From Nitrosomonas sp. (GTDB lineage: Bacteria > Pseudomonadota > Gammaproteobacteria > Burkholderiales > Nitrosomonadaceae): 64,000 bases of DNA. Position numbers and translations under genes: made by a program. Under the pieces are notes generated by a model that saw only the letters and a program-made list of their open reading frames with translations, was not told the origin of the DNA and ran no database searches. Within the stretch, counting starts at the first letter, position 1; every line of letters begins with the position of its first letter. The stretch spans positions 4,880-68,879 of the forward strand of contig JAJFJK010000038.1 of NCBI GenBank assembly GCA_021774075.1. Reading direction: 5' to 3'. Below are positions 9,163-47,222 of the stretch, one piece after another.

Positions 9163-9167
9163 GATAA

Positions 9168-10526: not shown

Positions 10527-10587
10527 AACTTTTCCTGTAGGGTTATCAGCGAAATAATTAATCTATACATGATCATTTACCAATTGA

Positions 10588-12375: not shown

Positions 12376-12474
12376 TGGTAAGAATGTTGATTAACAAAAT
12401 ATGCAGCCTAACTTGTTTGCTAAAAGTGCAATTGCACCACCAAGTGTAAAAAGTATGCAAAGAATACATGAAAA

Positions 12475-12490
12475 TGTGATCTGTGTCACA
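12475..12490 (-). promoter_or_regulatory. Perfect CRP-type operator TGTGA-N6-TCACA upstream of the T1SS operon
   Basis: The sequence aaaTGTGAtctgtgTCACAttt is a 22-bp near-ideal CRP consensus. Its centre lies about 107 nt upstream of the ABC start codon, just downstream of the CRP-family gene. Confidence 0.6.
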
Positions 12491-12517
12491 TTTTTATCGG
12501 AATGAAAATCTAATTCA

Positions 12518-13300
12518 TTAAGTACACTGTACCAATTTCTTTAATGCATTTGGATCTGTAATAATCAAACGGTGCGCTTCTTTCTTGACGATTCCCTGCT
12601 GTGCCAGCATAAGTAGGGTGCGTGTTACCGTTTCACGGCTGGTATTGATCATATTTGCAATTTCCTGGTGGGTGGGCAGGTTTTCCACCAGTTCCTGTTT
12701 CTCTGCGTTTTTTTGTTTCATAAAGGCCAAAAAACTGAAAATTCGCTTTGACGTATTGTTAATACTGAGCAAGGTGCGGAATTTATGATCACGCAGTACT
12801 TTCTGAGCCAAATGAAACTGCACCTGGTGCGCAACGGAAGGCGTATGTGTAAACAAATGTCGCGCTACTGCAGCCGGTAAGAATGCGATCAAAACATCAC
12901 TGAGCGCCGCCACCGTAGACATATGCACAGACTGATTAATCAACGCAACTTCGCCAAAAAAACTGCCGGGCGATAATAAACTCAGTCCGGTTACGCTGCC
13001 TTGTTCTGTTCGGTCAACAACCTGGATTCTTCCTGAAAGTAACAGCAATAAATGATCGGCACTTGCACCCTGTTGTAAAATTACATCACGTCGGACGTAT
13101 TGTTGGATGCTGAGATGCTTTTTAACATGTTCCATCTCGTTGCCGGTTAGTTGTGACAGCAGTGGAATATTCCGTAAATTAATGGTTATATTAACCTTGC
13201 TTTTATTTGGCACAGGTGCCGGAGGTATCGGTATGCCAGTCGACGGCGGTGATACCGGTGCATCTTCCAATGAAACAAGCAGGTTTTTTTTGTTAGCCAT
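12518..13300 (-). CDS. Crp/Fnr-family cNMP-binding transcriptional regulator with a Pro-rich N-terminal extension
   Basis: cNMP-binding domain (FFGEVALI...). C-terminal HTH with recognition helix SRETVTRTL, an RE..R pattern as in CRP. Confidence 0.85.
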   Translation of the reverse strand: MANKKNLLVSLEDAPVSPPSTGIPIPPAPVPNKSKVNITINLRNIPLLSQLTGNEMEHVKKHLSIQQYVRRDVILQQGASADHLLLLLSGRIQVVDRTEQGSVTGLSLLSPGSFFGEVALINQSVHMSTVAALSDVLIAFLPAAVARHLFTHTPSVAHQVQFHLAQKVLRDHKFRTLLSINNTSKRIFSFLAFMKQKNAEKQELVENLPTHQEIANMINTSRETVTRTLLMLAQQGIVKKEAHRLIITDPNALKKLVQCT

Positions 13301-31152: not shown

Positions 31153-33186
31153 TTGCGCTATTCTAAATTAATTCTCAGATTAATTATATCTGGCATGGCT
31201 TTGGCTATGGCCGGATCAGTTATGGCTTATCATCCAGTGGAATCGGTGCATTTGCCACGTATGCCGGAAGTCGTTGTGGTTGAAGACGCAGCTGAGAACA
31301 AAGCCGAACGAGAACTGGAGCAGCCTGAAATCGTGTTGCGTGATGACAGGCTACGCCGCAAACGCGAAGCAAATTTGGGTGACACGTTATCCCAGGAGTT
31401 GGGGATTACTTCTAGCAGTTTCGGGCCGGGCGCAGGGCGGCCGATTATTCGCGGGCAGGACAGTTCAAGAGTCAGAGTTTTAGAAGGTGACATTGGTACC
31501 GGCGATCTTTCCATTATTAGCCCGGATCATGCCGTTGCTACGGAGACAATGAGCGCATCACGTATTGAAGTCCTGCGTGGCCCATCAACACTACTTTATG
31601 GCAGTGGCACATCCGGTGGTATTGTGAATGTCATTACGAATCGTATTCCTGATCGTTTATTCAAGTCGGTTAGCGGTAATTTTGAAGGGCGTTTTAATTC
31701 GGCGTTGGAAGAACGCACCGGGGCGTTGAATGCATCGGGTAGTCAGGGTCGGTTCTCCTGGAATATCGAAGGGATGAAAAGAAAAACCAACGACATAAAA
31801 ATACCCGGACGTGCGAATAAGAATGACCCCAACAGTCCATCAGGCGTAGTCAGAAACAGTGCGATAGATTCCAGCAATATATCTGTGGGTGGTTCTTATA
31901 TTGGTGAACGGGGTTTTGTCGGCGTATCAATTACCCGACTGGAGAGCTTTTATGGTATTCCCGGCCCGGAAGGGGCAACAATTGATATGGGGCAAACACG
32001 TTATGGCTTGGCCGGTGAGTTGGATAATCCTTTGCAAGGATTCGAGCAGCTAAAACTACGCATGAACTATAATGATTACCAGCATAATGAGCTGGAAGAC
32101 ACGGGTGAGATTGGTTCAAGTTTTAAGAACAATGAGGTGGAAGGCCGCGTTGAATTGCTGCACGCGCCAATTGCGCAATGGCAAGGTATTGTGGGTGTGC
32201 AATTCCAGAATCGTGATTTTTCCGCCAAGGGTGAAGAAGCATTTGTGCCGTCATCACAGTCGCATTCGGTTGGTTTGTTTATGTTGGAAAAGCGCCGTTT
32301 GGATCGTTGGCAGTTTGAAATTGGTGGACGTTTGGAACATGCCGCCCAGAATCCACAAGGCAATCAATTTCAATCACGCGATTTTGGTTTGTACAGTGTT
32401 TCAGGCGGCAGTGCCTGGGAATTTGTTGATGGTTATCAAATTGATTTAACCGCCACCCGCGGGCAGCGTGCGCCAACCACGGTTGCCTTGTATGCCAATG
32501 GCATCCACATTGCAACCAATACTTTTGATCATGGTAACCAAAGCTTAAGCAAAGAAACGTCTAACAACTTTGATTTTTCTTTGCAAAAAACAAGCGGGGC
32601 TGTTAGAGGCCGGGTGAATTTGTTTTACAACCATATTGATAACTATGTTTTCCAGCAAAGTCGCGACAGCAATGGCGATGGCCTGGCAGACCGGGTGAAT
32701 GATGAGGGTGTGTTGGATGCGGACGGTGCTTTTGTGGTGCAGGACTTTTCTCAAACACGCGCCAGATTTTACGGCGTGGAAGCTGAAGCCACCGTTGCAC
32801 TATTACCCGACATGCTGGATTTGAGGGTCTTCACCGATATCGTGTATGCCAATTTAAAAAATAACGGCAAAGTTCCGCGCATGACACCGCAGCGTTTTGG
32901 CGTCGATTTGGATTACAAATGGAATTCATGGCTGGCGAATTTTAATGTGACACGTGTAACCCGTCAGAACCGGGTGGCGACATTGGAATCTGAAACACCG
33001 GGTTATACCCTAATGAATGCTGAAGTTGCGCATCGTTTCAAACGGGGCCATTCGACTTACCATACCCTGTTTTTGCAGGGAAGAAACTTACTGGATAGTG
33101 ATATTCGCGTACATACCTCTTTCTTAAAAAACACTGCGCCACTACCTGGGCGTGCCATAGTGGTTGGTATCAGAGGGGAGTTTTAA
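31153..33186 (+). CDS. TonB-dependent outer membrane receptor
   Basis: Signal peptide, plug domain (DTLSQELGITSSSFGPGAGRPIIRG), a 22-strand-type barrel and a C-terminal ...VGIRGEF aromatic terminus. TTG start. Confidence 0.9.
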   Translation: MRYSKLILRLIISGMALAMAGSVMAYHPVESVHLPRMPEVVVVEDAAENKAERELEQPEIVLRDDRLRRKREANLGDTLSQELGITSSSFGPGAGRPIIRGQDSSRVRVLEGDIGTGDLSIISPDHAVATETMSASRIEVLRGPSTLLYGSGTSGGIVNVITNRIPDRLFKSVSGNFEGRFNSALEERTGALNASGSQGRFSWNIEGMKRKTNDIKIPGRANKNDPNSPSGVVRNSAIDSSNISVGGSYIGERGFVGVSITRLESFYGIPGPEGATIDMGQTRYGLAGELDNPLQGFEQLKLRMNYNDYQHNELEDTGEIGSSFKNNEVEGRVELLHAPIAQWQGIVGVQFQNRDFSAKGEEAFVPSSQSHSVGLFMLEKRRLDRWQFEIGGRLEHAAQNPQGNQFQSRDFGLYSVSGGSAWEFVDGYQIDLTATRGQRAPTTVALYANGIHIATNTFDHGNQSLSKETSNNFDFSLQKTSGAVRGRVNLFYNHIDNYVFQQSRDSNGDGLADRVNDEGVLDADGAFVVQDFSQTRARFYGVEAEATVALLPDMLDLRVFTDIVYANLKNNGKVPRMTPQRFGVDLDYKWNSWLANFNVTRVTRQNRVATLESETPGYTLMNAEVAHRFKRGHSTYHTLFLQGRNLLDSDIRVHTSFLKNTAPLPGRAIVVGIRGEF

Positions 33187-34447: not shown

Positions 34448-36715
34448 ATGGCAAAATGGTCCAAGCAACTTCTCCTGGGTGTGTTCATCGGCCTGTTCGG
34501 TGTCATCGTGAATCTGACGCCACTGGGTTTGGCGCTGGAAGAAAAGTTCGGCTTATATTGGTTGTTTCACTTACGTGGTCCAGTGACCGCGCCCAATGAT
34601 GTTGCGGTTGTTGCGATAGATCGACCTTCGGCAACTGCGCTGGATTTGCCCATTACGCCCCGGTCATGGCCGCGTGAATACCATGCGCGTTTAATAGAAA
34701 AATTAACCGCAGCTGGTGCCCGTGTGATTGTGTTTGATTTGTTGTTTGACACGCAAGGCATTGTGCCGGAAGACAATGTCAAACTTGCGCACGCAATGCA
34801 ACAAGCACGCAATGTCGTTGTTGTTGAGCGATTGGTTTTTGAGGAATCGGAATTACTTGCGGATTTTGTCGATCAACCTTATAACCGTTTTACCCAGGAA
34901 GGTACTTCCAAGCTCCTGCCAATGATTGCAGATACTGTCATGGCACACGCACCTTTTCCTTTACCCAAAGCTGCCAGAGTAAATAATTATTGGACTTTTA
35001 AGGCCGGTGCCGGTGATGTGCCAACCATGCCTGTTGCAGCATTACAGGTATATGCCTTGCCGCTGTATGATGATTTTGTTCGCTTGTTACAAAATGTAAA
35101 TCCGGCTTATGCAGCAAAATTACCCGTTGATAAGGCTGCGCTGGATATTGATGGTTTGCTTTTAACCTTACGCAATATTTTTGTAAATGATCCCCACATC
35201 GCACGCTTGATGCAAGCGGCGTTAAATCGTGACACCAATTTGGATGAGGCAAAGAAACGGGTTATTAATGCACTTCTAAATGTGTATGCCGGTGACGAGA
35301 TACGCTACATCAATTTTTATGGCCCGCCGCGTAGCGTCAAGACGGTGCCGTATTATCAGCTATTGCAATTAGACGGCAGTGAATCAATAGAAAATCACCA
35401 GCAGCAATTTGATTTCCAAGATAAAGTGGTTTTTGTCGGATTCTCTGCCGCAACACAGCCCGAGCAGGACAGAGTCAGAGATGATTATCATACAGTGTTC
35501 TCAAACCCTAATGGGCTTTTCATCAGTGGTGTTGAGATTGCTGCGACAGCGTTTGCCAATTTATTAGAAAACCGGCCTATTAGGCCTTTTCCGTTTACTG
35601 GTAGCTTGGGGCTTCTTTTTGTTCTGGGCTTTGGCATGAGTGTGGTTTTTCTGGCATTACCCAATCGCAGTTCAATAGCATTTGGCTGTTTCTTAATTTT
35701 CATTTATGCTTTCAGTGTTTTTTATCAGTTTAAACACGCAGGACTCTGGCTGCCTTTAATTGTTCCGATGTTTCTGCAATTGCCACTTGCGTTATTTGGT
35801 GCTGTATTCCTAAGATATCTTGACGCTAAAAAGTCGCGACAACAGCTGCAGGAAGCATTTGGGTATTTTCTGCCTGAGCGTGTCGTTAACGATATTGCCA
35901 AAAGCTCAGGGGCGATTTTTTCCAATACTCAATTGGTATACGGCGCTTGTCTGGCGACTGATGCAGACATGTATACGAGACTTGCCGAGAACATGGACCC
36001 AGTAGAATTAGGTCGCTTGATGAACGATTATTATGCCGTATTGTTTGAACCCGTTCGTCAGCATAATGGCATTGTCTCAGATGTTGTGGGAGATGCCATG
36101 CTTGCAATATGGACAGCTTCTGCGGCTAATATCGCTTTGCAGCGACGCGCATGTCTTGCATGTCTGGATATCGCTGAAGCTGTTGAGCGGTTCAACCAAT
36201 TCAATCAAGCCAATGGTCGAAAAATATTACCGACCCGAATTGGATTACATGCGGGTGAAATGTTACTGGGCAATATTGGTGCCATTGACCATTACGAATA
36301 TCGTGCAGTTGGCGATATGGTGAATACGAGCAATCGCATTCAAGGCATGAATAAATATCTGGGTACGCGATTATTGGTGTCCAGTGCAGTAGTCGCAGGC
36401 CTGGATGAATTTTTGATACGTCCGCTTGGTGGGTTCGTGTTGTTTGGCAAATCATCGTCGGTGGATCTGGTGGAATTGATCACACACAAACAAGCGGCTA
36501 GTAATGAACAATTGTGGCTGTGTGAAGTATTTGCCAGTGCATTGCATGCCTATCAATTACAAAAATGGCAAGAGGCCATTAAAGATTTTTCAGAAATTCT
36601 TAGAGCATTTCCAAAAGATGGGCCAGCACGATTTTTTCTGGGGCATTGTCAACGTCAGATGCAGGCACCCCCCATTGATTTGTGGAGTCCTACTATCCGT
36701 ATGGAGAGTAAATAA
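34448..36715 (+). CDS. CHASE2 sensor domain-containing class III adenylate/guanylate cyclase
   Basis: N-terminal TM segment plus a periplasmic CHASE2 domain (VAVVAIDRPS...VIVFDLLFD), followed by 3-4 TM segments. The cyclase domain has metal Asp residues (LATDADMYT, VGDAMLA) and VNTSNR. There is a TPR-like tail. Confidence 0.9.
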   Translation: MAKWSKQLLLGVFIGLFGVIVNLTPLGLALEEKFGLYWLFHLRGPVTAPNDVAVVAIDRPSATALDLPITPRSWPREYHARLIEKLTAAGARVIVFDLLFDTQGIVPEDNVKLAHAMQQARNVVVVERLVFEESELLADFVDQPYNRFTQEGTSKLLPMIADTVMAHAPFPLPKAARVNNYWTFKAGAGDVPTMPVAALQVYALPLYDDFVRLLQNVNPAYAAKLPVDKAALDIDGLLLTLRNIFVNDPHIARLMQAALNRDTNLDEAKKRVINALLNVYAGDEIRYINFYGPPRSVKTVPYYQLLQLDGSESIENHQQQFDFQDKVVFVGFSAATQPEQDRVRDDYHTVFSNPNGLFISGVEIAATAFANLLENRPIRPFPFTGSLGLLFVLGFGMSVVFLALPNRSSIAFGCFLIFIYAFSVFYQFKHAGLWLPLIVPMFLQLPLALFGAVFLRYLDAKKSRQQLQEAFGYFLPERVVNDIAKSSGAIFSNTQLVYGACLATDADMYTRLAENMDPVELGRLMNDYYAVLFEPVRQHNGIVSDVVGDAMLAIWTASAANIALQRRACLACLDIAEAVERFNQFNQANGRKILPTRIGLHAGEMLLGNIGAIDHYEYRAVGDMVNTSNRIQGMNKYLGTRLLVSSAVVAGLDEFLIRPLGGFVLFGKSSSVDLVELITHKQAASNEQLWLCEVFASALHAYQLQKWQEAIKDFSEILRAFPKDGPARFFLGHCQRQMQAPPIDLWSPTIRMESK

Positions 36716-36783
36716 AATATTCGGGTTTTAAGAAATAATCACATCACATGTTATTCCATTGATGCACAAACATTAGCACTGTT

Positions 36784-36901
36784 TGTGAGAAAGCGCACAG
36801 ACAGCTAACAAAATAGATTCTAGAATTGTAGTCAGATTATATTGATTATTATCGATTTGTAGTTACCTAGGCTGGTTTCAGACTATTTCTCTCGTATAAT
36901 G
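36784..36901 (+). promoter_or_regulatory. Candidate cNMP-regulator-dependent promoter of FecR-TPR-barrel paralogue A
   Basis: TGTGAgaaagcGCACA at 36784-36799. TTGATtattATCGA at 36842-36855. An 18-nt block TATTTCTCTCGTATAATG at 36884-36901, identical to 42304-42321, contains a perfect TATAAT. Confidence 0.45.
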
Positions 36902-36996
36902 AATTGGTCGAGCTGGTTTTTTGAGCGCTTAGCTCTTTAAGGAAGCGAGTGAAATAAGTGCCCATGTTCCAATTACGAGAGAGATAGAAACTAATA

Positions 36997-39900
36997 ATGG
37001 GAATTTGTCAGATGTTTGTATTGAACTTATTTAAGAGCAATACTTCAGCGAATGCATCTGTCGGTTTTATTTTATTGGTATTTCTTGGTTTTACGGATAA
37101 AGTTTATGCGACAGAATCTTGTGAATTACCGGTGGCGCAAATTGTTTCAGCCCAGGGTGTCATTGAGTTGCGTCGTGCCAATGAAACAATTTGGCGGCAA
37201 GTAGCCATGAATGCCATACTTTGTTCTGGTGATATGATTCGCGCACGTTCACATAGCCGAGCGTCACTTCGGCTGAGCAATGAAAGTATGCTCAGACTGG
37301 ATCAGAGGACAACCATTACATTTCCCCAATCAGAACAAGATAAAGCCACCTCGCTATTGGATTTATTGAAGGGCGCGATACATATTATTACCCGCACACC
37401 CAAGCCATTCAAAGTCAGAACACCATTTATTAATGCAGTAGTCGAGGGCACCGAATTTTTTGTCGGTGTTGATGAAGACAGTACAACGCTCGTCCTTTAT
37501 GAAGGGCAAGTAACCGCTAGTAATGAACAAGGTAGTCTTGTTCTAGTTGACCATGAAGCTGCGGTTGCCACTAGAAACCAAGCGCCGCGTAAAGAAATCA
37601 TTGTGCGCCCAATAGATGCGGTGCAATGGGCGCTCTACTATCCGGCAATCATTGATTATCATCGCAACGGTAGTGCTCAAAGTGATGACCCAATTAGCTT
37701 GTTGATTCGTGAAGCAGTAGATTTGTTAACTGTTGGGCGGGTGAACGAGGCAAGGGTTGTTATTGAGCAGGTACAGGCACAGGTGGCACTCGAACCAGAC
37801 AATAGTGAAATCATTGCAATACAGGCAATCATTGCAGTGGTGCAAAATGATAAAGAGCAGGCCTTAAATCTGGCAACGCGTGCAGTTGAGTTTGACCCAA
37901 CTTCCTCAGCAGCAAAACTTGCCTTATCTTATGCGCTACAAGCGCACTTCAAAATTGAAGAGGCATTGGAAATTGTCCAGGAGGCAGTAACACTTGATTC
38001 AGATAATGCATTGTTGTGGGCCAGATTAGCTGAATTACAAATGTCTGTCGGCGATTTAGATCGTGCATTAAACGCAGCGCAACGTGCGGTGAATTTAAAT
38101 CCGGATATTGCGAAAACACAAACCGTATTAGGCTTCGCTTATTTACTGCGCATTGAAACGCAAACGGCAAAGACCATGTTTAGCAAAGCTATCCTGCTTG
38201 ATCAGGCTGACCCGATGCCAAGATTAGGGATGGGCTTAGCATTAATACGTGAAGGGGCACTGGAAGCAGGGCGTATTGAGCTAGAAATTGCAGCCAGCCT
38301 TGACCCAGCCAATTCACTGATTCGTAGTTATCTGGGCAAAGCCTATTTTGAAGAAAAACGCTATCCGCTTGCAAGTACACAGTTTAAATTGGCCAAAGAG
38401 CGCGACCCATATGACCCTACACCCTGGTTTTATGATGCCATCCAGAAACAGACTCAAAATCGCCCGGTAGAAGCATTAAAAGACATACAAAAATCAATTG
38501 AACTGAATGATAATCGCGCTGTGTATCGGTCCAGACTGCTGCTGGATCAGGATCAAGCCGGGCGTGGTTCTAGTCTGGCACGAATTTTTGGCAATCTGGG
38601 ATTTGAGAAACGTGCATTGATGGAGACTGCTAAATCCTTAAGCTTTGACCCATCCAACCATTCGGCACACCGGTTTTTATCGGATACCTATGCCAATATT
38701 CCAAGACATGAAATAGCGCGAGTAAGTGAACTACTTCAAGCGCAACTATTGCAGCCAATTAACGTAAACCCGGTGCAACCACATGCAGCCGTGCCAGATC
38801 TCAATATTATTACTGGCACTGGACCATCCGTAGCAGGTTTTAATGAGTTTGCGCCGTTGATGGAACGAAACAAACCACAACTGGTTGCTTCAGGCGTTGT
38901 TGGTAATCAGGGAACGTTGGGAAACGAAATGGTTTTTTCAACGCTCTATGACCGGACTTCAGTCAGTCTGGGGCAGTTTCACTATGAAACCAATGGTTTT
39001 CGTCCAAATAATGATCAGAAGCATAATATCTACAATGCATTTATTCAGCATGCTTTTTCATCGAAATTGAATATCCAAGCTGAAGTGCGTACGCAAGAAA
39101 AAGAACATGGTGATATTGAACTTGATTTTAATCCAATGCTTCTTGATAAAAAAGAAAGAAGAACATTCAGAAAAGATACTGCACGTTTGGGTGCTAGATA
39201 TTCACTTTCAAGAAAACAGGATATCATCGTCTCCATGATTTATGGAAACAGAAAATTTAAAGGTAACAATTTATTTCAGCTTTCACCAAACCCAAATGAA
39301 ACTAGCAATCTATATCAAGTAGAAGCGCAATATTTATTTCAGGACAAATTTTTCAACTTAATAGCAGGAGGTGGGCTATCATCAAGAAAAACTAATGACT
39401 CAAGCCCTTCTTCAGTAGTTAACGATAAATTTGAACGCGAAAATGCTTATTTATATACATTATGGAATCTGCCTAAAAATATCAGTACAACTCTAGGGTT
39501 CAGCTATAATTCATTTCATGCTGACAGAAGTAGTGTGAGCGCATATAAAATAAATGAATTTGATCCAAAATTAGGCCTGCAGTGGAATATCACCAAAGGT
39601 TTAAGATTGCGCTTGGCCTGGATTGAAACGATCAAAAATGACTTATTGATTCAACAAACCATTGAGCCGACGCAGGTGGCTGGTTTTAATCAATTTTTTG
39701 ATGATCCAAATGGAACAAAATCAAAACGCAAAAGTGTTGGCCTAGACTTTCAAATTTTTAATAACCTGTATGGTGGTGTTGAAGGCTCAGTCCGTAAATT
39801 AAAAATTCCGTCTATAGATAAAATTGGTTTTCGTGAGCAAACGGAACAAGCGTATCGTGCCTATCTGTATGGATTAATCAGCGCAAACTGGTCTGTTACC

Positions 39901-40305
39901 GGGGAATTTGAATTCGAAAGCTTTAAAAGAAGTAAACAATCCGCTGGGCTAAACCCGTCTGATATCGAGACTCTGAGTATGCCCATAAAAATTAATTATT
40001 ATAACCCTATGGGAATATTCGCCAGTATCAAAGGAACCTTTGTAAGGCAGGAAATTAAGCGAGGCAATCCCATTCGATTTGACCCAGAAATAGGTAAGAC
40101 TGAAGGCTTAAGTGATTTTTTCTTGCTGAATGCAATTGCTGGTTATAGGTTGCCATCTCGAAGAGGGCTACTCAGCTTTGAAATCAGAAATATTTTCAAT
40201 GAAGATTTTAATTATCGTAATTCGTGGTTCCAAGTTTCAGAACCAACAATACCCAGATATATTCCAAGCCGAACGTTTTCTTTACAACTCACTTTAAATT
40301 ATTAA
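36997..40305 (+). CDS. FecR-domain, TPR and C-terminal outer-membrane beta-barrel-like protein, paralogue A (1102 aa)
   Basis: Signal peptide ending ...VYA/TESCE. FecR-like domain (LCSGDMIRARSHSRASLRLSNESMLRLDQRTTITF). Multiple TPRs. C-terminal ~500 aa with alternating beta-strand pattern ending ...LQLTLNY (aromatic terminus). Confidence 0.8.
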   Translation: MGICQMFVLNLFKSNTSANASVGFILLVFLGFTDKVYATESCELPVAQIVSAQGVIELRRANETIWRQVAMNAILCSGDMIRARSHSRASLRLSNESMLRLDQRTTITFPQSEQDKATSLLDLLKGAIHIITRTPKPFKVRTPFINAVVEGTEFFVGVDEDSTTLVLYEGQVTASNEQGSLVLVDHEAAVATRNQAPRKEIIVRPIDAVQWALYYPAIIDYHRNGSAQSDDPISLLIREAVDLLTVGRVNEARVVIEQVQAQVALEPDNSEIIAIQAIIAVVQNDKEQALNLATRAVEFDPTSSAAKLALSYALQAHFKIEEALEIVQEAVTLDSDNALLWARLAELQMSVGDLDRALNAAQRAVNLNPDIAKTQTVLGFAYLLRIETQTAKTMFSKAILLDQADPMPRLGMGLALIREGALEAGRIELEIAASLDPANSLIRSYLGKAYFEEKRYPLASTQFKLAKERDPYDPTPWFYDAIQKQTQNRPVEALKDIQKSIELNDNRAVYRSRLLLDQDQAGRGSSLARIFGNLGFEKRALMETAKSLSFDPSNHSAHRFLSDTYANIPRHEIARVSELLQAQLLQPINVNPVQPHAAVPDLNIITGTGPSVAGFNEFAPLMERNKPQLVASGVVGNQGTLGNEMVFSTLYDRTSVSLGQFHYETNGFRPNNDQKHNIYNAFIQHAFSSKLNIQAEVRTQEKEHGDIELDFNPMLLDKKERRTFRKDTARLGARYSLSRKQDIIVSMIYGNRKFKGNNLFQLSPNPNETSNLYQVEAQYLFQDKFFNLIAGGGLSSRKTNDSSPSSVVNDKFERENAYLYTLWNLPKNISTTLGFSYNSFHADRSSVSAYKINEFDPKLGLQWNITKGLRLRLAWIETIKNDLLIQQTIEPTQVAGFNQFFDDPNGTKSKRKSVGLDFQIFNNLYGGVEGSVRKLKIPSIDKIGFREQTEQAYRAYLYGLISANWSVTGEFEFESFKRSKQSAGLNPSDIETLSMPIKINYYNPMGIFASIKGTFVRQEIKRGNPIRFDPEIGKTEGLSDFFLLNAIAGYRLPSRRGLLSFEIRNIFNEDFNYRNSWFQVSEPTIPRYIPSRTFSLQLTLNY

Positions 40306-40318
40306 CAGGAGAAATAAA

Positions 40319-40771
40319 ATGAAGTCAATTAAAATAGTTTGTGCAATTATTCTCAGTATTGTAGCAATTTTTTCAGTTTTTGTAGTTGGTAAGCTTGCAT
40401 CAAGTGGTTTTCCAGTAAAAGCTTATGTGCTCGGAGGTGAACTAGACTTCATTAGCAAAGTTGAACCAACATTGTCCGAGAAAAGATCTTTTACAATAGA
40501 TTTAGATCAACCAGAAGAAGCTTTTCATCACATATTGGTTGCAAAAACAATTGACCCAGAAAAAAATGATGTTAAATATGATTTATATACCCCAAGACAT
40601 TTAATTGCAAATTACACTCCACATATGGAACAACATGAAGATTCATTCTTACAAATAGTTAATGTCGCGTTTGCTCAATCTGTAAGCAGTTGTAACCATC
40701 AAGATATAATTTGTGGACACTACACGGATAACAACGGAAATCAAGGTAGTGGTTGTTGGTGTAGCCCGTAG
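40319..40771 (+). CDS. Small signal-anchored or secreted protein with a Cys-rich C-terminus (...GSGCWCSP)
   Basis: AGGAG RBS, 13 nt after the paralogue A stop. N-terminal hydrophobic segment and 4 Cys in the last 30 residues. Confidence 0.6.
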   Translation: MKSIKIVCAIILSIVAIFSVFVVGKLASSGFPVKAYVLGGELDFISKVEPTLSEKRSFTIDLDQPEEAFHHILVAKTIDPEKNDVKYDLYTPRHLIANYTPHMEQHEDSFLQIVNVAFAQSVSSCNHQDIICGHYTDNNGNQGSGCWCSP

Positions 40772-41061
40772 CCAAGGTTATATTGACCATCATGAGGCAA
40801 AACAGTCGGTCTAAAGCCCGTGGTTTGGCTCATTCATTAGTCGTCCCTGAAAGCCCTCAACCCGCTAATAAAATTAAATGATGTACGTTCTTTTGATGAT
40901 CATTTCGACTGAGAATGGTAGATGAAATACTGTTTTCTTGTCGAAATGGTTAACAAAAATGTGTGCTCAAATAATCCATATACCCGGGTATTTTTTTGAA
41001 AAGAACTATAGTCAGAATGGGGTAAAAAACTCAGCCTAGTTATCATGGCGGAAAGCTTTTG

Positions 41062-41811
41062 CTAATACAAGAAAACATTATCTAATACACCGATGAGCTT
41101 AAAATCGCCATTAAAGTGGTTGTTGATAATACTGGCCGCTTCATTTGTTACAAGTTCAAACATCTTATCGTCAGTCCGCACATCTGGCTCAGGTGTATCA
41201 TTTAATACTTCGAAAAGTAATGCTCGAAATTCTTCAGTATTTTCTTTTTTATTAGAAAATTCATTTATTTGTGCCAATTCAGATTCATCAAGTGCTGAAA
41301 ATAAATTAATTAGTGATCCATAAAATAAAGATTCAACACTTTCTTCTGTTGCTGGAACGTTGTTTAAGTGTCCAACACCTAATTCTTCAGTATCATAGAT
41401 TTTATCATCACTTTGAAGGGTATATATAGGGCCCAAAAAAAGCGGATAGATCCCATCAAAAGAAAGTAGGGATTGAACTTGCTCACTTAGAGAAGAGTTT
41501 GATAAAACCTCTATGTTATTATTGAAATTTACTAGATTTTCTAAAGAATCTGGATCAGAGTTAAATAAAATACTTGTATTATCTAGCTCACGTGGATCAA
41601 GATCATTAAATGTAAAATATTCAGTAATAACCTCCGTCGGAAAATTAGTAATTTCATTCAGCATCGCATTTGTTACACCACTTTCCCGGGCTGCAGCAAA
41701 TATCACTTCCGGCTGATCAATGTTTATAGTAATAAAGTCAGCTGCTTGTTGAATTGAAACTCCTCGTTTGGCTAATTGTTCTTCTGCGGATATAAATTGT
41801 TTTGTTGACAT
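41062..41811 (-). CDS. Acidic hypothetical protein (249 aa from the RBS-supported start)
   Basis: The ATG at 41811 is preceded by AGAGGGGAGG. Highly acidic with no recognisable motifs. The track ORF extends to 41982 without an RBS. Confidence 0.5.
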   Translation of the reverse strand: MSTKQFISAEEQLAKRGVSIQQAADFITINIDQPEVIFAAARESGVTNAMLNEITNFPTEVITEYFTFNDLDPRELDNTSILFNSDPDSLENLVNFNNNIEVLSNSSLSEQVQSLLSFDGIYPLFLGPIYTLQSDDKIYDTEELGVGHLNNVPATEESVESLFYGSLINLFSALDESELAQINEFSNKKENTEEFRALLFEVLNDTPEPDVRTDDKMFELVTNEAASIINNHFNGDFKLIGVLDNVFLY

Positions 41812-42206
41812 AAAACCTCCCCTCTTATAGATAATAATAAAAGCTATGGTTTGATTGGATTGAACTTCACGTTGCGCACTATTTAACTCCAAATAACGCT
41901 GATCAAACACCCCGACGATAGAGTTATCTGCCACAAGACTATTAATAAGATTAAGCGATTTATCAATGATCAATCTTATCACTGTTATATCAGGCTTTCT
42001 GGCTGACTTCTCAAGTTAATCTGATCTGACAGGATAGTATGTTTTGCAAGATGCGTATATTAGTTTTTCATCAATCCACAGTAAAGTTTCGGATCATGAG
42101 TCAATATTTTTTCATATAGATTACGCAATAAGATCACTTGTCAAATCATGTGATTTGAGCATCCAAAATTTGCATCTACCATTTTAAGCAACTCATTAGC
42201 TTTTTT

Positions 42207-42321
42207 TGTGCGTTTTATCACATACGAAATGTGGTTCAGTCGCTAAACTCAGATTACGTTTGATTTGCATCAATCAGCAAAATATCCAGAATACCCTCAA
42301 GGTTATTTCTCTCGTATAATG
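42207..42321 (+). promoter_or_regulatory. Candidate cNMP-regulator-dependent promoter of paralogue B
   Basis: TGTGCgttttaTCACA at 42207-42222. Perfect TTGATttgcATCAA at 42260-42273. Conserved block TATTTCTCTCGTATAATG at 42304-42321. Confidence 0.45.
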
Positions 42322-42419
42322 CACCGAAAGTCTAAATTAGGTTCTTGAGTACGCAGCTCCTTTTGGAAAGTGAGTTCAGTGTTAGTACTCACAACGCCAA
42401 CTGCGAGAGATAGATTCAA

Positions 42420-45400
42420 ATGAGAACATGTTGGATATTGAAGCTGAACTTACTGAATAACAGTAAGTTAGCAATTACGTTTGTAATATGTTTTTTATTT
42501 TTCTTTATTGGTTTTGTAGACAGGACTTATGCAGCAGAATCATGTGAATCATCACCAGTGGCGCAAATCGTTTCAGTTCAGGGGACGATTGAATTGCGTC
42601 GTGCGAATGAAAGTGTTTGGCGGCCAGCAGCTATGAATACCGCACTTTGTTCGGGTGACATGCTTCGGGCGCGTTCACACAGTCGCGCAGCACTGCGTTT
42701 GAGCAATGAAAGTATGCTACGGCTGGATCAGCGCACCACGCTGTCATTTCCGCAAGAAGAAAAAGCCATTTCGCTGTTGGATCTGGTCAAGGGTGCAATA
42801 CATGTTATTACCCGCACATCCAAGCCTTTTGAAATCAGAACGCCATTTCTTAATGGGGCTGTTGATGGCACCGAATTTTTTGTTGGTGTTGATGAAGATA
42901 GCACACGATTGGTTATTTATGAAGGTCAGGTAACCGCCAGTAATGATCAGGGCAGTCTTGTTCTGGTTGATCATGAAGCGGCAATTGCCACCAAGCATCA
43001 GGCCCCACAAAAAGAAGTCATCATGCGCCCAACCGATGCGGTGCAATGGGCGCTGTATTATCCCGCCATTATTGATTATCAGCTTGATGCTGGTATTGAG
43101 CGCGATGCTATCAGTACACTGATTCGTGATGCGTCGCATTTGTTGACAATCGGGCGGGTTGATGAAGCCACAACAGCAATCAAACAAGCACTTGAAATAG
43201 CGCCGGATAAGGGTAGGGGCAGCAGTGACGCCTATGCTTTAAAGTCGATGATTGCCATGGTGCAAAACGACAAAGACGCAGCGCTGCATTTCGCGACACA
43301 GGCCGTCGAACTGAATCAAACTTCAGCGGCTGCATGGTTGGCGTTGTCGTATATTCAGCAAGCGAATTTTGAAATTGATGACGCACTGGCCAGTGTGCAG
43401 GAAGCGGTGGCGATAGACGCACAAAATGCCCTGGCCTGGGCGCGTCTGGCTGAATTACACATGTCCACGGGTTATTTGAAGCATGCTTTGGATGCGGCGC
43501 AACATGCCGTGAATTTCAACCCCGCTTTGGCTAAAACACAAACGGTATTGGGTTTCGCCCATTTGCTGAAAATCAACACCGAAGAAGCCATTGCAATCTT
43601 TACGCAAGCCATCCAGCTCGATCAGGCCGACCCCATGCCCCGGCTGGGTTTAGGTTTGGCGTTGATACGCGAAGGCGAGCTTGAAGCCGGGCGGGTTGAA
43701 CTGGAAATTGCAGCTAGTCTTGATCCAGCCAATTCGCTGATACGCAGTTACTTGGGTAAAGCGTATTTTGAAGAAAAACGCTATGCATTGGCTGAAACCC
43801 AGTTTGATCTGGCCAGGGAGCGCGACCCGTATGATCCGACACCGTGGTTTTACGATGCCATCCAAAAACAAACACAAAACAGGCCGGTGGAAGCACTCAG
43901 CGATATCCAAAAATCGATTGAACTGAATGATAATCGGGCGGTGTATCGATCCAAGTTATTACTGGATCAGGATCAGGCCGGGCGTGGATCAAGCCTGGCG
44001 CGTATTTATGACAATCTGGGTTTTGAGAAACGCGCCCTGATGGAAACGGCCAGATCATTAAGTGCAGACCCGGCCAATCATTCAGCGCACCGCTTTTTGT
44101 CGGATGCCTACACCAATATCCCACGCCACGAAGTCGCGCGCGTTAGTGAGCTGCTGCAAGCGCAATTGTTGCAACCGATCAATGTGAACCCCGTGCAACC
44201 GCACCTTGCCGTGGCGGATCTCAATATCATCACCGGCACCGGCCCAACCGCAGCAGGCTTTAACGAATTTGCCCCGCTCATGGAGCGTAACAAACCGCAG
44301 TTGGTTGGCTCGGCGATTGTCGGCAGTAACAGCACCGTGGGTAATGAAACAGTACTCTCAGCATTGTATGACCGCGCTTCGGTCAGCATCGGTCAATATC
44401 ATTTTCAATCCGACGGATTTCGTGAAAATAATGATCAGAAACACAATGTCTACAATGCCTTCATGCAGTATGCAGTGACACCGCGCTTAAATGTTCAGGC
44501 GGAAATACGTCGGCGCAAGACTGAGAATGGCGATTTGCTACTGGATTTCGATACAACCAATTTTAGAAATCAACGACGAATTCTAGAACAAGATACGGTA
44601 CGTGTAGGCGCAAGATACGCGTTGTCACCACGCCAGGATTTGATTGTTTCAGCCATGTATGCAGATCGCCAGGAGGACATCACTTTAGCACCTGCACCCG
44701 GTGTTGGCATTAATTCAGGGATAAAAGATAAGGGATATCAAATAGAAGGACAATATTTATTCCGCGAAGACTATTTTAATCTTGTTGCAGGTGGTGGCGT
44801 TTACAAAATTGATGCGCAGAGCCAAGTGCAAGTTTGTCAGGGACCTTGTTTTCCCTCTCCAGTAATAAATTTTACGAGAGAACGCGAAAATGCATATCTC
44901 TATTCAAATTTCAGTTACCCGGAAAACGTAACGGCAACGCTGGGTGTGAGCTACGATGCATTTAAAGATGTTGTCGATGATAAGTTTGATACATTTAATC
45001 CAAAATTTGGTCTGCAATGGAATATCAGCGATATGTTCCGTCTGCGTCTTGCTTGGTTTGAAACAGTCAAGGCTGCATTGATTACCAATCAAACGCTGGA
45101 ACCCACGCAAGTGGCCGGTTTTAATCAATTGTTTGATGACCTGAGTGGCACCCGGGCGCGACGCATGGGGGTAGGTTTGGATGCTTATTTCACCAAAAGT
45201 ATCTACGGTGGGTTGGAAGTATCTGAGCGTGACTTAAAGGTTCCTTTTGCTGATGGGGTAACAGCGGCATTATTGGCGAGTGAGAAACAACAAGAAAGAC
45301 TTTATCGTTCCTATCTGTACTGGTTGCCGCATGTCCATTGGACGATCAATGGCGAGTTTCAGTTTGAGCGCTATACGCGTAATGCAACGAGTATTGGTGG

Positions 45401-45743
45401 TGCTGACAAACCATTTCAGATTCAAACGCTCAGCGCCCCATTGGCGATCAATTATTTTCACCCGAGTGGTTTTTTCAGCAAATTCACCACAACGTATGTA
45501 CAACAAAATCTAAAGCGGCTAGCTGCTTCGTCATTGAGAGACGGCACCGATGATTTTGTATTGTTTGACGCGGCAATTGGTTACCGGTTGCCCAACCGCA
45601 GAGGCCTGGTCAGTCTGGAAGGCAGAAACCTGAGTAACGAGGATTTCTTTTACAGGAATGTCAATTTTCAGATAAATGAAGCGATTACGCCTCGTTTTAT
45701 CCCGACACGCACAATTTTTGCGCGTGTTACTTTGAACTTTTAA
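42420..45743 (+). CDS. FecR-domain, TPR and C-terminal outer-membrane beta-barrel-like protein, paralogue B (1107 aa)
   Basis: Same architecture as 36997-40305. Long identical stretches include DPANSLIRSYLGKAYFEEKRY, DPYDPTPWFYDAIQKQTQNRPVEAL and ARVSELLQAQLLQPINVNPVQPH. Ends ...ARVTLNF. Confidence 0.8.
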   Translation: MRTCWILKLNLLNNSKLAITFVICFLFFFIGFVDRTYAAESCESSPVAQIVSVQGTIELRRANESVWRPAAMNTALCSGDMLRARSHSRAALRLSNESMLRLDQRTTLSFPQEEKAISLLDLVKGAIHVITRTSKPFEIRTPFLNGAVDGTEFFVGVDEDSTRLVIYEGQVTASNDQGSLVLVDHEAAIATKHQAPQKEVIMRPTDAVQWALYYPAIIDYQLDAGIERDAISTLIRDASHLLTIGRVDEATTAIKQALEIAPDKGRGSSDAYALKSMIAMVQNDKDAALHFATQAVELNQTSAAAWLALSYIQQANFEIDDALASVQEAVAIDAQNALAWARLAELHMSTGYLKHALDAAQHAVNFNPALAKTQTVLGFAHLLKINTEEAIAIFTQAIQLDQADPMPRLGLGLALIREGELEAGRVELEIAASLDPANSLIRSYLGKAYFEEKRYALAETQFDLARERDPYDPTPWFYDAIQKQTQNRPVEALSDIQKSIELNDNRAVYRSKLLLDQDQAGRGSSLARIYDNLGFEKRALMETARSLSADPANHSAHRFLSDAYTNIPRHEVARVSELLQAQLLQPINVNPVQPHLAVADLNIITGTGPTAAGFNEFAPLMERNKPQLVGSAIVGSNSTVGNETVLSALYDRASVSIGQYHFQSDGFRENNDQKHNVYNAFMQYAVTPRLNVQAEIRRRKTENGDLLLDFDTTNFRNQRRILEQDTVRVGARYALSPRQDLIVSAMYADRQEDITLAPAPGVGINSGIKDKGYQIEGQYLFREDYFNLVAGGGVYKIDAQSQVQVCQGPCFPSPVINFTRERENAYLYSNFSYPENVTATLGVSYDAFKDVVDDKFDTFNPKFGLQWNISDMFRLRLAWFETVKAALITNQTLEPTQVAGFNQLFDDLSGTRARRMGVGLDAYFTKSIYGGLEVSERDLKVPFADGVTAALLASEKQQERLYRSYLYWLPHVHWTINGEFQFERYTRNATSIGGADKPFQIQTLSAPLAINYFHPSGFFSKFTTTYVQQNLKRLAASSLRDGTDDFVLFDAAIGYRLPNRRGLVSLEGRNLSNEDFFYRNVNFQINEAITPRFIPTRTIFARVTLNF

Positions 45744-45755
45744 AAAGGAAAAAAA

Positions 45756-46007
45756 ATGAATGATTTACCTGAAGCAGCAAAAAAAGCGTTGGAAGAAGCA
45801 GGTGTAGACGTTGCGGCGGTCATTTGTGTTGATAAGCAGGGTAAAACACATATGATGAAAGACAAGAATGTGAGCGGTAACGATACGAAGTTCCCTATTG
45901 AAACCACCGCGATTGAAGACATTACGCCGATGAGTATGGTGCGACATAAAGGATCGCAGTGTGTAACCATTATTATCGGCGGTGTGTCTTATACAATCTG
46001 CTGGTAA
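45756..46007 (+). CDS. Small protein (83 aa) ending in CVTIIIGGVSYTICW
   Basis: AAGGA RBS, 12 nt after the paralogue B stop. No signal peptide. The C-terminal 15 residues are shared with the next small ORF. Confidence 0.6.
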   Translation: MNDLPEAAKKALEEAGVDVAAVICVDKQGKTHMMKDKNVSGNDTKFPIETTAIEDITPMSMVRHKGSQCVTIIIGGVSYTICW

Positions 46008-46090
46008 CAGTCGTTTTATTTAGGCGGGGTTCGGTATACAGTTCTGTATTGATCCCCGTTTGTTGTTTGGATTAGAAAACACTGTATTTG
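45960..46090 (+). repeat. Repeat unit 1: core-peptide coding end plus 3' flank with hairpin
   Basis: tgtgtaaccattattatcggcggt...ctggtaacag...ggcgggg..gttctgtattgatccccg... is repeated at 46219-46350. Confidence 0.8.
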
Positions 46091-46143
46091 AGTACGTTCT
46101 GCATCCTGTTTTTTTTGGTACTACTATTAAAGGGGAGAATCAA

Positions 46144-46266
46144 ATGAAGAGAAAAATCATTATTCTTATCAGTACTATTGTGATGGCTGGTTATATGTCA
46201 AGTGGATTTGCTTATGATTGTGTCACTATTATTATCGGTGGTTTGCCTATGACATTCTGCTGGTAA
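46144..46266 (+). CDS. Secreted mini-protein precursor (40 aa), predicted mature 17-mer YDCVTIIIGGLPMTFCW
   Basis: AAGGGGAG RBS 6 nt upstream of the ATG at 46144. Typical Sec signal MKRKIIILISTIVMAGYMSSGFA. Two Cys residues in the mature part. Confidence 0.6.
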   Translation: MKRKIIILISTIVMAGYMSSGFAYDCVTIIIGGLPMTFCW

Positions 46267-46350
46267 CAGTTTTTTATTCAGGCGGGGATTGGTACGTAGT
46301 TCTGTATTGATCCCCGCTTGTGCTGTTTGAATTAGCAAATGCAGTATTTT
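46219..46350 (+). repeat. Repeat unit 2: core-peptide coding end plus 3' flank with hairpin
   Basis: Direct repeat of 45960-46090. The hairpin gcggggat ... atccccgc has an 8-bp stem. Confidence 0.8.
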
Positions 46351-46502
46351 AACGCTCACGTTATTCAATCGAATTGGTGTATCCGCACATAGATTTAATT
46401 CGTATCACAAATCCTAATTTCCGTTCGTAATGCTGGTTTTATTCACCCTTGTGTAATTGTGGGTTAGAATACAGATTCATAAACAGCAAATCTAAACAAT
46501 AA

Positions 46503-47222
46503 ATGTCTACACGGCACATATCAAAAGAGCGGGCCGTTGCAATGCTCTCGGCGGTCAAGGAATTTCAAGGTTTGTCTTTAGTAGACTTGGAAACGATCAA
46601 TGAGGCTTGTAACTGGCAGCGTTATGAGGCGAATGAAGATATCGTCAGATATCATGATCATACGAATAGCGCGTTCTTCATTGCGCAGGGTGAAATTCGT
46701 GTCTCGTATAGTGCCTTGTCAGGCCATGAGGTCATTTTATGCGACTTGTCGGCTGGTGAGATGTTTGGTGAGTTGACGGCGATTGATGGCGAGCCCCGCT
46801 CGGCTTCTGTTGTTGCGAAAATAAGTACATTATTGGCTTGCATGCCAGCGGCTGCTTTTTTGAATTTAATTTCTTCGAATCGGCAAGTTGCCGAGGCGAT
46901 CCTCAAACGTCTGACGGGACAAATTCGCCGTCTTACCGAGCGGGTTTATGATTTCAGTACATTGGCTGTGCGTAATCGTATTCAAGCTGAAATATTGCGT
47001 TTGGCACGAAATAATATGACCGTCGACAATACAGCGGTTATTTCCCCTGCACCCACACATTTGGATGTCGCTAATTTTGTCAGTACACATCGTGAGGCAG
47101 TGACGCGTGAGCTGAAACATTTAGCCGGAGAGAGTCTGGTTATTCGCAAGGGCCAGGATTTGCATGTGCTGGATGTCGGCAGATTAGCCGACATGGTTAA
47201 TGAAGTGCGGGGTTGTAGTTAG
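46503..47222 (+). CDS. Crp/Fnr-family cNMP-binding transcriptional regulator
   Basis: cNMP-binding site FGELTAIDGEPRSASVVA. HTH with recognition helix HREAVTRELK (CRP-like RE..R). The stop codon TAG lies inside the terminal repeat of the adjacent MITE. Confidence 0.85.
   Translation: MSTRHISKERAVAMLSAVKEFQGLSLVDLETINEACNWQRYEANEDIVRYHDHTNSAFFIAQGEIRVSYSALSGHEVILCDLSAGEMFGELTAIDGEPRSASVVAKISTLLACMPAAAFLNLISSNRQVAEAILKRLTGQIRRLTERVYDFSTLAVRNRIQAEILRLARNNMTVDNTAVISPAPTHLDVANFVSTHREAVTRELKHLAGESLVIRKGQDLHVLDVGRLADMVNEVRGCS

Follow-up and report, generated by a model that had tools for sequence, protein, structure and literature searches.

Genes A to H, at positions 34448-47222 of a 64-kb window (the whole stretch of Nitrosomonas sp. 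DNA that was analysed), form a real envelope-spanning signalling module. Rather than a system of a new kind, the cluster represents a variant of a pathway already studied in Sinorhizobium meliloti, NsrA-CyaK-Clr. It encodes a CHASE2 receptor cyclase, two large proteins that combine a FecR domain, a tetratricopeptide repeat (TPR) array, a linker and a barrel, small partner proteins coupled to each of these, a Crp-family regulator and an acidic protein:

34448-36715, + strand: A, CHASE2 receptor cyclase of the inner membrane, 755 amino acids (aa; Pfam CHASE2 3e-30, Guanylate_cyc 8e-10)
36997-40305, + strand: B, FecR-TPR-linker-barrel outer membrane protein, paralogue 1 (NsrA-type), 1102 aa (Pfam)
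40319-40771, + strand: C, partner coupled to B, 150 aa, gap to B 13 nucleotides (nt)
41062-41811, - strand: D, acidic protein, cytoplasmic, all-alpha, of an orphan family (open reading frame to 41982; probable start 41811)
42420-45743, + strand: E, FecR-TPR-linker-barrel outer membrane protein, paralogue 2, 1107 aa (Pfam, AlphaFold2, hhalign)
45756-46007, + strand: F, partner coupled to E, 83 aa, gap to E 12 nt
about 46021-46062: older copy of the terminator-like hairpin of G, 3' of F
46144-46266 (best reading), + strand: G, precursor of 40 aa, partial tandem duplicate of F (Shine-Dalgarno and signal peptide)
46279-46320, + strand: terminator-like hairpin 3' of G
46503-47222, + strand: H, Crp-family regulator dependent on a cyclic nucleoside monophosphate (cNMP), 239 aa (cNMP_binding and HTH_Crp_2)

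The relation to the rhizobial pathway was seen in a tblastn search of plasmids with E, which returned Ensifer megaplasmids on which the gene of a 1216-aa protein with a FecR domain (E 2e-17) and TPR lies directly 5' of a CHASE2 cyclase gene. The orthologue on S. meliloti pSymB, of 1197 aa and annotated as 'TonB-dependent receptor', abuts an adenylate/guanylate cyclase gene from the upstream side. We take it to be nsrA (SMb20775) from its position directly 5' of the cyclase gene, its length, which suits a barrel at residues 600-1200 (PMC7529298), and, in part, what Garnerone 2018 reportedly describes. That study (the NsrA paper) and Tian 2012 are reportedly the works in which the pathway was described. 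Comparison by hhalign of 43 family members with S. meliloti NsrA gave 99.2% probability (E 1.2e-19, 451 columns, FecR and TPR), and BLASTP matched the rhizobial protein at E 8e-22 with approximately 26% identity over FecR and TPR. The barrel halves align over 468 colinear columns, a marginal match (hhalign probability 52%, E 1.5e-4).

In S. meliloti, the outer membrane barrel protein NsrA, the CHASE2 cyclases CyaK, CyaD1 and CyaD2 and the regulator Clr act together, NsrA being needed for the signal-dependent production by CHASE2 cyclases of cyclic AMP (cAMP), which is read by Clr (PMC7529298, PMC13001267). Genetically, NsrA acts upstream of the cyclases; the signal to which it responds is an exogenous protein, and its barrel spans residues 600-1200 (PMC7529298). 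Clr responds to both cAMP and cyclic GMP (cGMP) (PMC10127613). As B and E share the architecture of NsrA beside a CHASE2 cyclase, the mechanism proposed here has a characterised precedent.

An initial annotation of the window had suggested its core, namely a barrel with a FecR/TPR arm that communicates with a CHASE2 cyclase whose product is read by a Crp-like regulator in place of an extracytoplasmic function (ECF) sigma factor. This core matches the S. meliloti pathway as known from genetics, and it also fits the shared architecture and gene adjacency, the synteny, the CRP boxes and the co-variation of FecR with CHASE2. The same annotation held that no characterised system has this composition, which is wrong given NsrA-CyaK-Clr and the published pairing of FecR with CHASE2 (PMC9239204, PMC5192318). 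All of its open reading frames were found again at the same coordinates. Pfam upheld the CHASE2 class III cyclase and the two FecR/TPR paralogues of about 1100 aa with an aromatic last residue (..TLNY in B, ..TLNF in E), and the tight coupling of a small gene to each paralogue, the further mini-gene and the CRP-family regulator with an intact RSA motif were likewise recovered.

Architecture of the barrel proteins and the cyclase

B and E are 64% identical overall. Both match the FecR family (PF04773; E 5e-17 in B and 5e-15 in E) and, weakly, the Pfam family TonB_dep_Rec_b-barrel, and both begin with Sec-type leaders which, read off the sequence, end in VYA before TE in B and in TYA before AE in E. 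The segments of E are a signal peptide to approximately residue 38, FecR at 48-199, TPR at 204-502, the linker at 505-624 and the barrel at 627-1107. Its AlphaFold2 model (from an alignment of 43 sequences; mean predicted local distance difference test score, pLDDT, 69.9) has a leader helix at 14-33, a beta-rich FecR domain, a helical TPR region and 22 strands over 627-1107 at pLDDT of about 70-88. Foldseek comparison of E with the PDB showed solely TonB-dependent transporters as top matches, FecA being the best (E 1e-14), followed by PqqU, Fiu and BtuB. A barrel at residues of about 600-1100, for which the initial annotation had called for structure prediction, is thus confirmed in the model as a real one, predicted to be of the 22-strand TonB-dependent-transporter type.

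The comparison with BcsC, PgaA, PelB and Slam made in the initial annotation fails on this point. TPR-barrel exopolysaccharide porins and Slam possess family-specific barrels, of 16-18 strands or of the DUF560 type, whose genes have polysaccharide synthases or surface lipoprotein substrates as neighbours. The barrel of B and E is of the transporter type and not of the BcsC, PgaA or Slam type, because its top matches in the PDB are TonB-dependent transporters, and no DUF560 barrel was found in either protein. In NCBIfam, the PgaA and BcsC models match no more than the TPR region, at 17-23 bits against cut-offs of 367-858, and no polysaccharide synthase genes adjoin B or E. An exporter of the BcsC/PgaA/PelB type was therefore rejected. 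The sole trait shared with Slam is a neighbouring lipoprotein gene, and the label of secretion module given to the cluster received no direct support.

A true TonB-dependent transporter was also rejected, there being no detectable plug: Pfam gave no match to the Plug domain (PF07715) in B or E even at E 10, and hhalign of the linker with the plug of the window's own TonB-dependent receptor returned a probability of only 0.13%. The linker (E nt 43932-44291 approximately, and the equivalent in B) occupies the site where a transporter plug would sit, and it holds a local LNIIT motif recalling the end of transporter plugs, a similarity that is not significant. The linker is better conserved than any other part of the family proteins (mean pairwise difference 0.12, versus 0.47 for the barrel) and is the least confident part of the model of E (pLDDT <40). 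Identity between B and E is 77-84% for FecR and 82-95% for the linker and drops to 40-62% for the barrel. Recent gene conversion between B and E as the source of linker conservation was ruled out, as identity at third codon positions is not raised in the linker. At E <= 1e-3, the family defined by linker plus barrel counts 3,305 cluster representatives (50% identity), most of them proteins of about 1100-1150 aa with this module at the C-terminus.

Cyclase A consists, as read off its sequence, of one transmembrane helix, a periplasmic CHASE2 domain, three transmembrane helices, a class III domain and a short TPR-like tail; it is 26% identical to the rhizobial CyaK-like cyclase. Alignment to Cya2, other solved cyclases and orthologues showed that both metal-binding Asp, the Asn and the Arg are retained. 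The adenine-specifying Lys (position -4 from the second metal Asp) is replaced by Asp in A; this position is Asp or Glu in all Nitrosomonadaceae orthologues and Lys in rhizobial CyaK. Arg, Asn, Ser or Thr occurs at the second specificity position, and in A (domain at 35950-36400) the substrate-specifying pair is Asp and Arg instead of Lys and Asp/Thr. Asp or Glu at the first position resembles guanylate cyclases, and the best solved match of the catalytic domain is Synechocystis Cya2 (2w01), a guanylate cyclase with Glu at the Lys position. Owing to the replacement of the Lys, the product of A may be cGMP or something else.

Recurrence, co-variation and control of the operons

The initial annotation had proposed a survey of gene neighbourhoods, and a genome scan found the arrangement again in 77 related loci of Nitrosomonadaceae and relatives; such recurrence means that it is not due to chance. 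In 44 of the 64 loci with enough flank the cyclase gene is the immediate upstream neighbour of the barrel gene on the same strand, a Crp homologue (>=50% identity) is found within 4.5 kb downstream in 17/51, and eight loci carry two barrel genes. More distant members, in Gammaproteobacteria and in metagenome-assembled genomes of Binatia, have a CHASE2 cyclase or Crp-like gene nearby. The closest homologues all come from Nitrosomonas, Nitrosospira or Nitrosovibrio. Upstream of A, at 31153-33186 (+ strand), lies the gene of a canonical TonB-dependent receptor that has a Plug domain. In many related loci such a gene is immediately 5' of the cyclase; in the window a cation-efflux (CDF) gene separates the two.

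Co-variation was measured with pairwise distance matrices for each domain over 41 cyclase-barrel gene pairs. FecR distances follow those of CHASE2 (r = 0.90) more closely than those of the catalytic domain (0.80), and CHASE2 correlates with its own catalytic domain at 0.81; the excess of the FecR-CHASE2 correlation over that with the catalytic domain was above zero in >99% of bootstraps. Linkage alone would give the reverse order, because the catalytic domain sits between CHASE2 and FecR on the DNA. The FecR-CHASE2 correlation also gives indirect support to a possible requirement of the barrel proteins for signal-dependent cNMP synthesis. The barrel correlates at just 0.16-0.24 with everything else, its own N-terminal half included. 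Over 62 barrel-partner pairs, partner distance follows the barrel (r = 0.76; Mantel 0/300), against 0.16 for FecR and 0.13 for TPR. We read this pattern as two modules, a transducer (FecR, TPR and linker) matched to the cyclase and an input cassette (barrel and small protein) exchanged by recombination. Co-variation between neighbouring genes is suggestive of contact and no proof of it.

The small open reading frames to which this cassette refers lie 3' of 69/83 barrel genes, within about 0-19 nt and mostly 12-15 nt. They are hypervariable in sequence, and their type tracks the barrel clade. Approximately half are lipoproteins whose C-terminal part is a Cys-bounded hairpin; some 15 are anchored in the membrane and have CxC at their end, about eight lack a signal and have a CC[IV][FY] motif, and the remainder are of other types. 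The initial annotation had described the small proteins as CW-terminal mini-proteins. This does not hold in general: homologues of the coupled small proteins are mostly lipoproteins of 130-270 aa, and since the partners vary so widely across loci the CW ending is a local feature and not a defining one. No Pfam or NCBIfam family was matched by C or F.

C is of the transmembrane-anchored, CxC-ending type, with an N-terminal transmembrane segment or signal anchor and four C-terminal Cys (end ..GSGCWCSP). B groups with the clade whose partners are of this type, and a C-type partner is found 3' of B-like barrels in 9/14 cases. F carries a C-terminal Cys-x12-Cys-Trp hairpin (end ..TICW) and lacks a signal peptide, as do all 12 proteins of 83-88 aa in its family; its domain is also found behind a lipoprotein signal in related locus L004. 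G consists of a Sec-type signal peptide and a 17-aa Cys hairpin alone (mature peptide YDCVTIIIGGLPMTFCW), and originated when the last 16 codons of F, with its terminator, were duplicated in tandem and came to lie behind a new signal peptide. The duplicated stretches (45960-46063 and 46219-46321; approximately 105 nt, spacing 259 nt) are 81-86% identical. A further case like G was seen in related locus L030 (13903-14064), where a second small open reading frame after the partner repeats the C-terminal motif of that partner (GHSEGGAWIAGYW versus GHVEGGAWISGYC) through local duplication of its C-terminal end.

The promoter regions of B and E are similarly organised:

36784-36799, + strand: CRP-type box TGTGAGAAAGCGCACA, 5' of B (-10-like TAGAAT at 36821-36826; centre about -41.5)
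36842-36855, + strand: FNR-like palindrome TTGATTATTATCGA, leader/second promoter of B
36895-36900 (TATAAT), + strand: AAGGT..CGTATAAT element, leader/second promoter of B
42207-42222, + strand: CRP-type box TGTGCGTTTTATCACA, 5' of E (-10-like TAAACT at 42244-42249; centre about -41.5)
42260-42273, + strand: FNR-like palindrome TTGATTTGCATCAA, 5' of E
42315-42320 (TATAAT), + strand: AAGGT..CGTATAAT element, 5' of E

CRP boxes were scored as TGTGA-N6-TCACA with <=1 mismatch, <=400 nt upstream of a gene. The boxes of B and E each deviate by one mismatch, and just three such sites occur in the window. Across the related loci a box is present 5' of 54/79 barrel genes; these account for 55 of all 96 such sites in the 1.42 Mb, against an expectation of approximately one (an enrichment of about 50-fold); none was found 5' of cyclase genes (0/49). 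For 42/54 boxes, a -10-like hexamer begins +29.5 or +30.5 from the centre of the box, a position that puts this centre near -41.5, the geometry of class II promoters. The box matches the Escherichia coli CRP type and not the TGTT-N8-AACA type of Clr. Box and spacing together show the barrel operons, at sequence level, as predicted targets of a Crp-type regulator. Many loci also have an FNR-like palindrome, TTGAT-N4-ATCAA, about 52-53 bp (five helical turns) 3' of the CRP box, and 3' of this a conserved AAGGT-N11-TATAAT element approximately 100 nt before the start codon, a candidate second promoter or leader element. No Rfam families were detected in the conserved leaders of about 100-165 nt.

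The regulator that binds these boxes is most likely H. It has a cNMP-binding domain (PF00027, 4e-19) and a Crp-type helix-turn-helix (PF13545, 2e-8), its Arg-Ser phosphate-binding motif PRSAS aligns with ERSAW of Vfr, and its recognition helix is of the CRP type R-E-x-x-x-R (REAVTR); among solved structures, Vfr, Clr (7pza) and CRP are closest to it. A second Crp-like regulator is encoded at 12518-13300 (- strand), and the assignment to H is an inferred one because the recognition helix of this protein (SRETVTR) is also of the CRP type. The second gene adjoins a type I secretion set (7795-13300, - strand) composed of an ATP-binding cassette (ABC) exporter gene at 10588-12375, HlyD at 9168-10526 and a TolC-like outer membrane efflux protein (OEP) at 7795-9162. 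A perfect CRP box (TGTGATCTGTGTCACA) is located between the regulator gene and the ABC gene at 12475-12490, and this second regulator could share boxes with H.

The acidic open reading frame D, which the initial annotation had mentioned only as the exception to the plus strand, is no bystander: it is a real gene, conserved in related loci, and its family is syntenic with the module. Its 67 homologues, all of the Nitrosomonas type and of about 250 aa, share with it the lack of any Pfam domain. The AlphaFold2 model of D is a confident all-alpha fold (pLDDT 88.8, predicted template modelling score 0.86) with no match in the PDB (best E 2.4). D is found downstream in 19/51 related loci, often tandemly duplicated. 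In the window it is convergent with the B-C operon, and members of its family are always convergent with the barrel-partner operon (for example in loci L023, L031, L044, L056, L057, L063 and L073); none was seen after F-type partners. G+C content is 0.35 over C, D and the intergenic DNA (40000-42000) and approximately 0.45 elsewhere in the window, a dip that fits partner and D genes being exchangeable or recently acquired.

Proposed signalling mechanism and alternative explanations

The mechanism that we consider probable is a relay of the NsrA type, running from barrel and partner through linker and TPR to FecR, then to the CHASE2 cyclase, a cyclic nucleotide and a Crp-type regulator. The analysis shows the domain architecture, the type of barrel, the synteny, the boxes with their spacing and the pattern of co-variation, from which we infer the direction of signalling, the physical contacts, the identity of the nucleotide, the box-binding Crp-like protein and the nature of the signal. 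B and E would be exported, their 22-strand barrels inserting in the outer membrane while the FecR domain, TPR array and conserved linker remain periplasmic. Together with its cognate partner (C in the case of B, F and G in that of E), each barrel would form a variable input unit at the surface or outer membrane. The linker and the TPR array would relay a change in this unit to FecR. By contact with CHASE2 in the periplasm, FecR would then turn on the cytoplasmic catalytic domain of A, the single cyclase. The cyclic nucleotide, possibly cGMP or an unusual product, would bind the Crp-type regulator, most likely H, which would in turn bind the TGTGA-N6-TCACA boxes at about -41.5 and activate the B-C and E-F(-G) operons. 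With the sensors also being targets of the regulator, positive feedback would result. The two paralogues, similar in FecR and divergent in their barrels, would feed different inputs to one cyclase.

Several points weigh against this relay. The members from Nitrosomonas are known from sequence and models alone, and barrel homology to NsrA, as judged by hhalign (52%), is weak. The low confidence with which the linker, the most conserved part, is modelled leaves the transduction path without a structural model. The predicted lack of a signal peptide in F is hard to reconcile with a partner in the periplasm or at the surface. Co-variation of neighbouring genes may stem in part from a shared recombination history and not from contact. 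The CRP boxes show no more than that the barrel operons are outputs of a Crp-type regulator, which does not make the barrels inputs to the cyclase, and the second Crp-like regulator (12518-13300), with its helix of the same type, could bind them. Finally, in the absence from A of the canonical adenine-specifying Lys, a cAMP product would not be assured.

The strongest alternative, which we judge rather unlikely, is that the barrel-lipoprotein pairs are uptake or surface-display machines (like TbpA/TbpB, BtuB/BtuG, SusC/SusD or Slam) that are merely switched on by Crp and cNMP, the CHASE2 cyclase sensing a ligand of its own independently of the barrel proteins. The transporter type of the barrel, the coupled small gene at 69/83 barrel genes with about half of the products being lipoproteins, the barrel-partner co-variation (r 0.76), the placing of the operons downstream of the regulator by their CRP boxes and the frequent synteny of a canonical TonB-dependent receptor gene 5' of the cyclase all agree with such machines. 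They do not account for the absence of a detectable plug and of a DUF560 barrel, for a FecR domain, which has no known transport role, or for the closer co-variation of FecR with CHASE2 than with the catalytic domain. Moreover, the FecR-CHASE2 pairing recurs in unrelated lineages (PMC9239204, PMC5192318), and the rhizobial homologue NsrA is genetically upstream of cyclases (PMC7529298).

In a further proposal, the small Cys proteins or a disulfide hairpin released from them (as in G) are the cell's own exported signals, sensed by the cognate barrel in a polymorphic circuit of autoinduction or kin recognition with positive feedback through Crp. G, being only a signal peptide and a 17-aa Cys-bounded hairpin, has the form expected of such a signal; the hypervariable partners, whose type changes even among close relatives, nevertheless track the barrel, and the sensor-partner operons are positively controlled by the pathway's own type of regulator. 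Most partners, however, are lipoproteins of 130-270 aa or membrane-anchored and not diffusible peptides, F-type proteins have no export signal, the locus encodes no enzymes for processing or modification, and NsrA responds to an exogenous protein signal (PMC7529298). Self-signalling is accordingly a very doubtful explanation. That functionally unrelated genes merely lie side by side is hardly credible: H is downstream in just 17/51 loci and D in 19/51, and some barrel genes, E among them, have no cyclase directly 5', but this view is already contradicted by the comparative data, with cyclase-barrel adjacency in 44/64 loci, the same pairing in rhizobia, the roughly 50-fold enrichment of CRP boxes at barrel genes and the domain-specific co-variation.

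A bolder extension of the NsrA-type relay, which seems to us quite unlikely as a whole, is that barrel and small Cys protein form an exchangeable cassette shuffled by recombination at the linker onto a constant FecR-TPR transducer, with all inputs converging on one cGMP-making cyclase. If true, the surface sensors of ammonia oxidisers would form a polymorphic set that might detect self or non-self peptides, contact with phage or grazers, or exported hairpin peptides of the cell itself, and the long-sought input of CHASE2 would be a FecR-domain protein partner and not a small ligand. For the relay itself, experimental handles are provided by the two class II Crp-type promoters, the cognate barrel-partner pairs and a cyclase with specificity residues that predict a product other than cAMP.

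Comparison with known systems

Fec-type signalling resembles the module in its periplasmic domain of the FecR family, in its 22-strand barrel (FecA being the best structural match) and in the flow of information from the outer to the inner membrane. It differs in that B and E carry FecR in the same chain as the barrel and not as an inner-membrane anti-sigma factor, that they have neither plug nor N-terminal signalling domain and that the output would be a cyclic nucleotide. Fec-type ECF signalling was rejected, as no sigma-factor domains were found in any gene from 28.5 to 52.5 kb. TbpA/TbpB, BtuB/BtuG, SusC/SusD and LptD/LptE likewise place a large barrel gene beside a cognate lipoprotein gene, and the members of each pair co-evolve. 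Unlike the TonB-transporter/lipoprotein pairs, the Nitrosomonas barrels have no detectable plug, their partners of 40-270 aa belong to unrelated families and the N-terminal half of B and E is a FecR-TPR signalling arm.

Two other systems share the association of FecR with CHASE2. Campylobacterota have a cluster of a CHASE2 adenylate cyclase, a FecR-domain outer membrane protein, a TPR protein and a phosphodiesterase, for which a single pathway was proposed (PMC9239204). As in Nitrosomonas, a CHASE2 cyclase occurs with a FecR-domain outer membrane protein and TPR repeats; there, the TPR repeats come from a gene of their own and the cluster includes a phosphodiesterase, of which none was found in the Nitrosomonas locus, and the cluster was described by gene neighbourhood only (PMC9239204). 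In Burkholderia, an operon encodes a secreted LysM-FecR protein beside a CHASE2 histidine kinase (PMC5192318). Here too the gene of a secreted FecR-domain protein adjoins that of a CHASE2 receptor, but the output is a histidine kinase with a response regulator, and the FecR protein binds peptidoglycan through LysM and is not fused to a barrel. That Burkholderia also pairs a FecR-domain protein with a CHASE2 receptor suggests that FecR and CHASE2 are a general partner pair.

The closest system remains that of NsrA. In each, a large secreted protein combines FecR and TPR with an outer membrane barrel of about 500-600 aa at its C-terminus, and its gene adjoins that of a CHASE2 class III cyclase; in each, a Crp-family protein reads the nucleotide with no ECF sigma factor. 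The gene order is cyclase-barrel in Nitrosomonas and nsrA-cyaK in rhizobia, and only the Nitrosomonas window has two tandem barrel paralogues, a hypervariable Cys-containing partner gene translationally coupled to each barrel (none follows nsrA) and the orphan protein D. The Nitrosomonas cyclase has Asp/Glu where CyaK has Lys. CRP-type boxes precede the Nitrosomonas barrel operons, while a search for a Clr-type box near S. meliloti nsrA found none. The signal cannot be a legume cue either, because the Nitrosomonas host is a free-living ammonia oxidiser.

The kind of system, with its genetic support in S. meliloti, and the association of FecR with CHASE2 were thus already known, and the cluster does not add a new category. 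What is new is the Nitrosomonadaceae branch with its coupled hypervariable partners, two-module co-variation, class II Crp-box promoters, orphan protein D and non-adenylate specificity residues. It extends the pathway from a legume symbiont to ammonia-oxidising Nitrosomonadaceae, in which cyclic-nucleotide signalling is essentially unstudied. CHASE2 is among the commonest extracytoplasmic sensor domains without a known ligand, and the comparative data support the idea, first raised by the work on NsrA, that it takes its input from an outer-membrane-anchored protein partner with a FecR domain.

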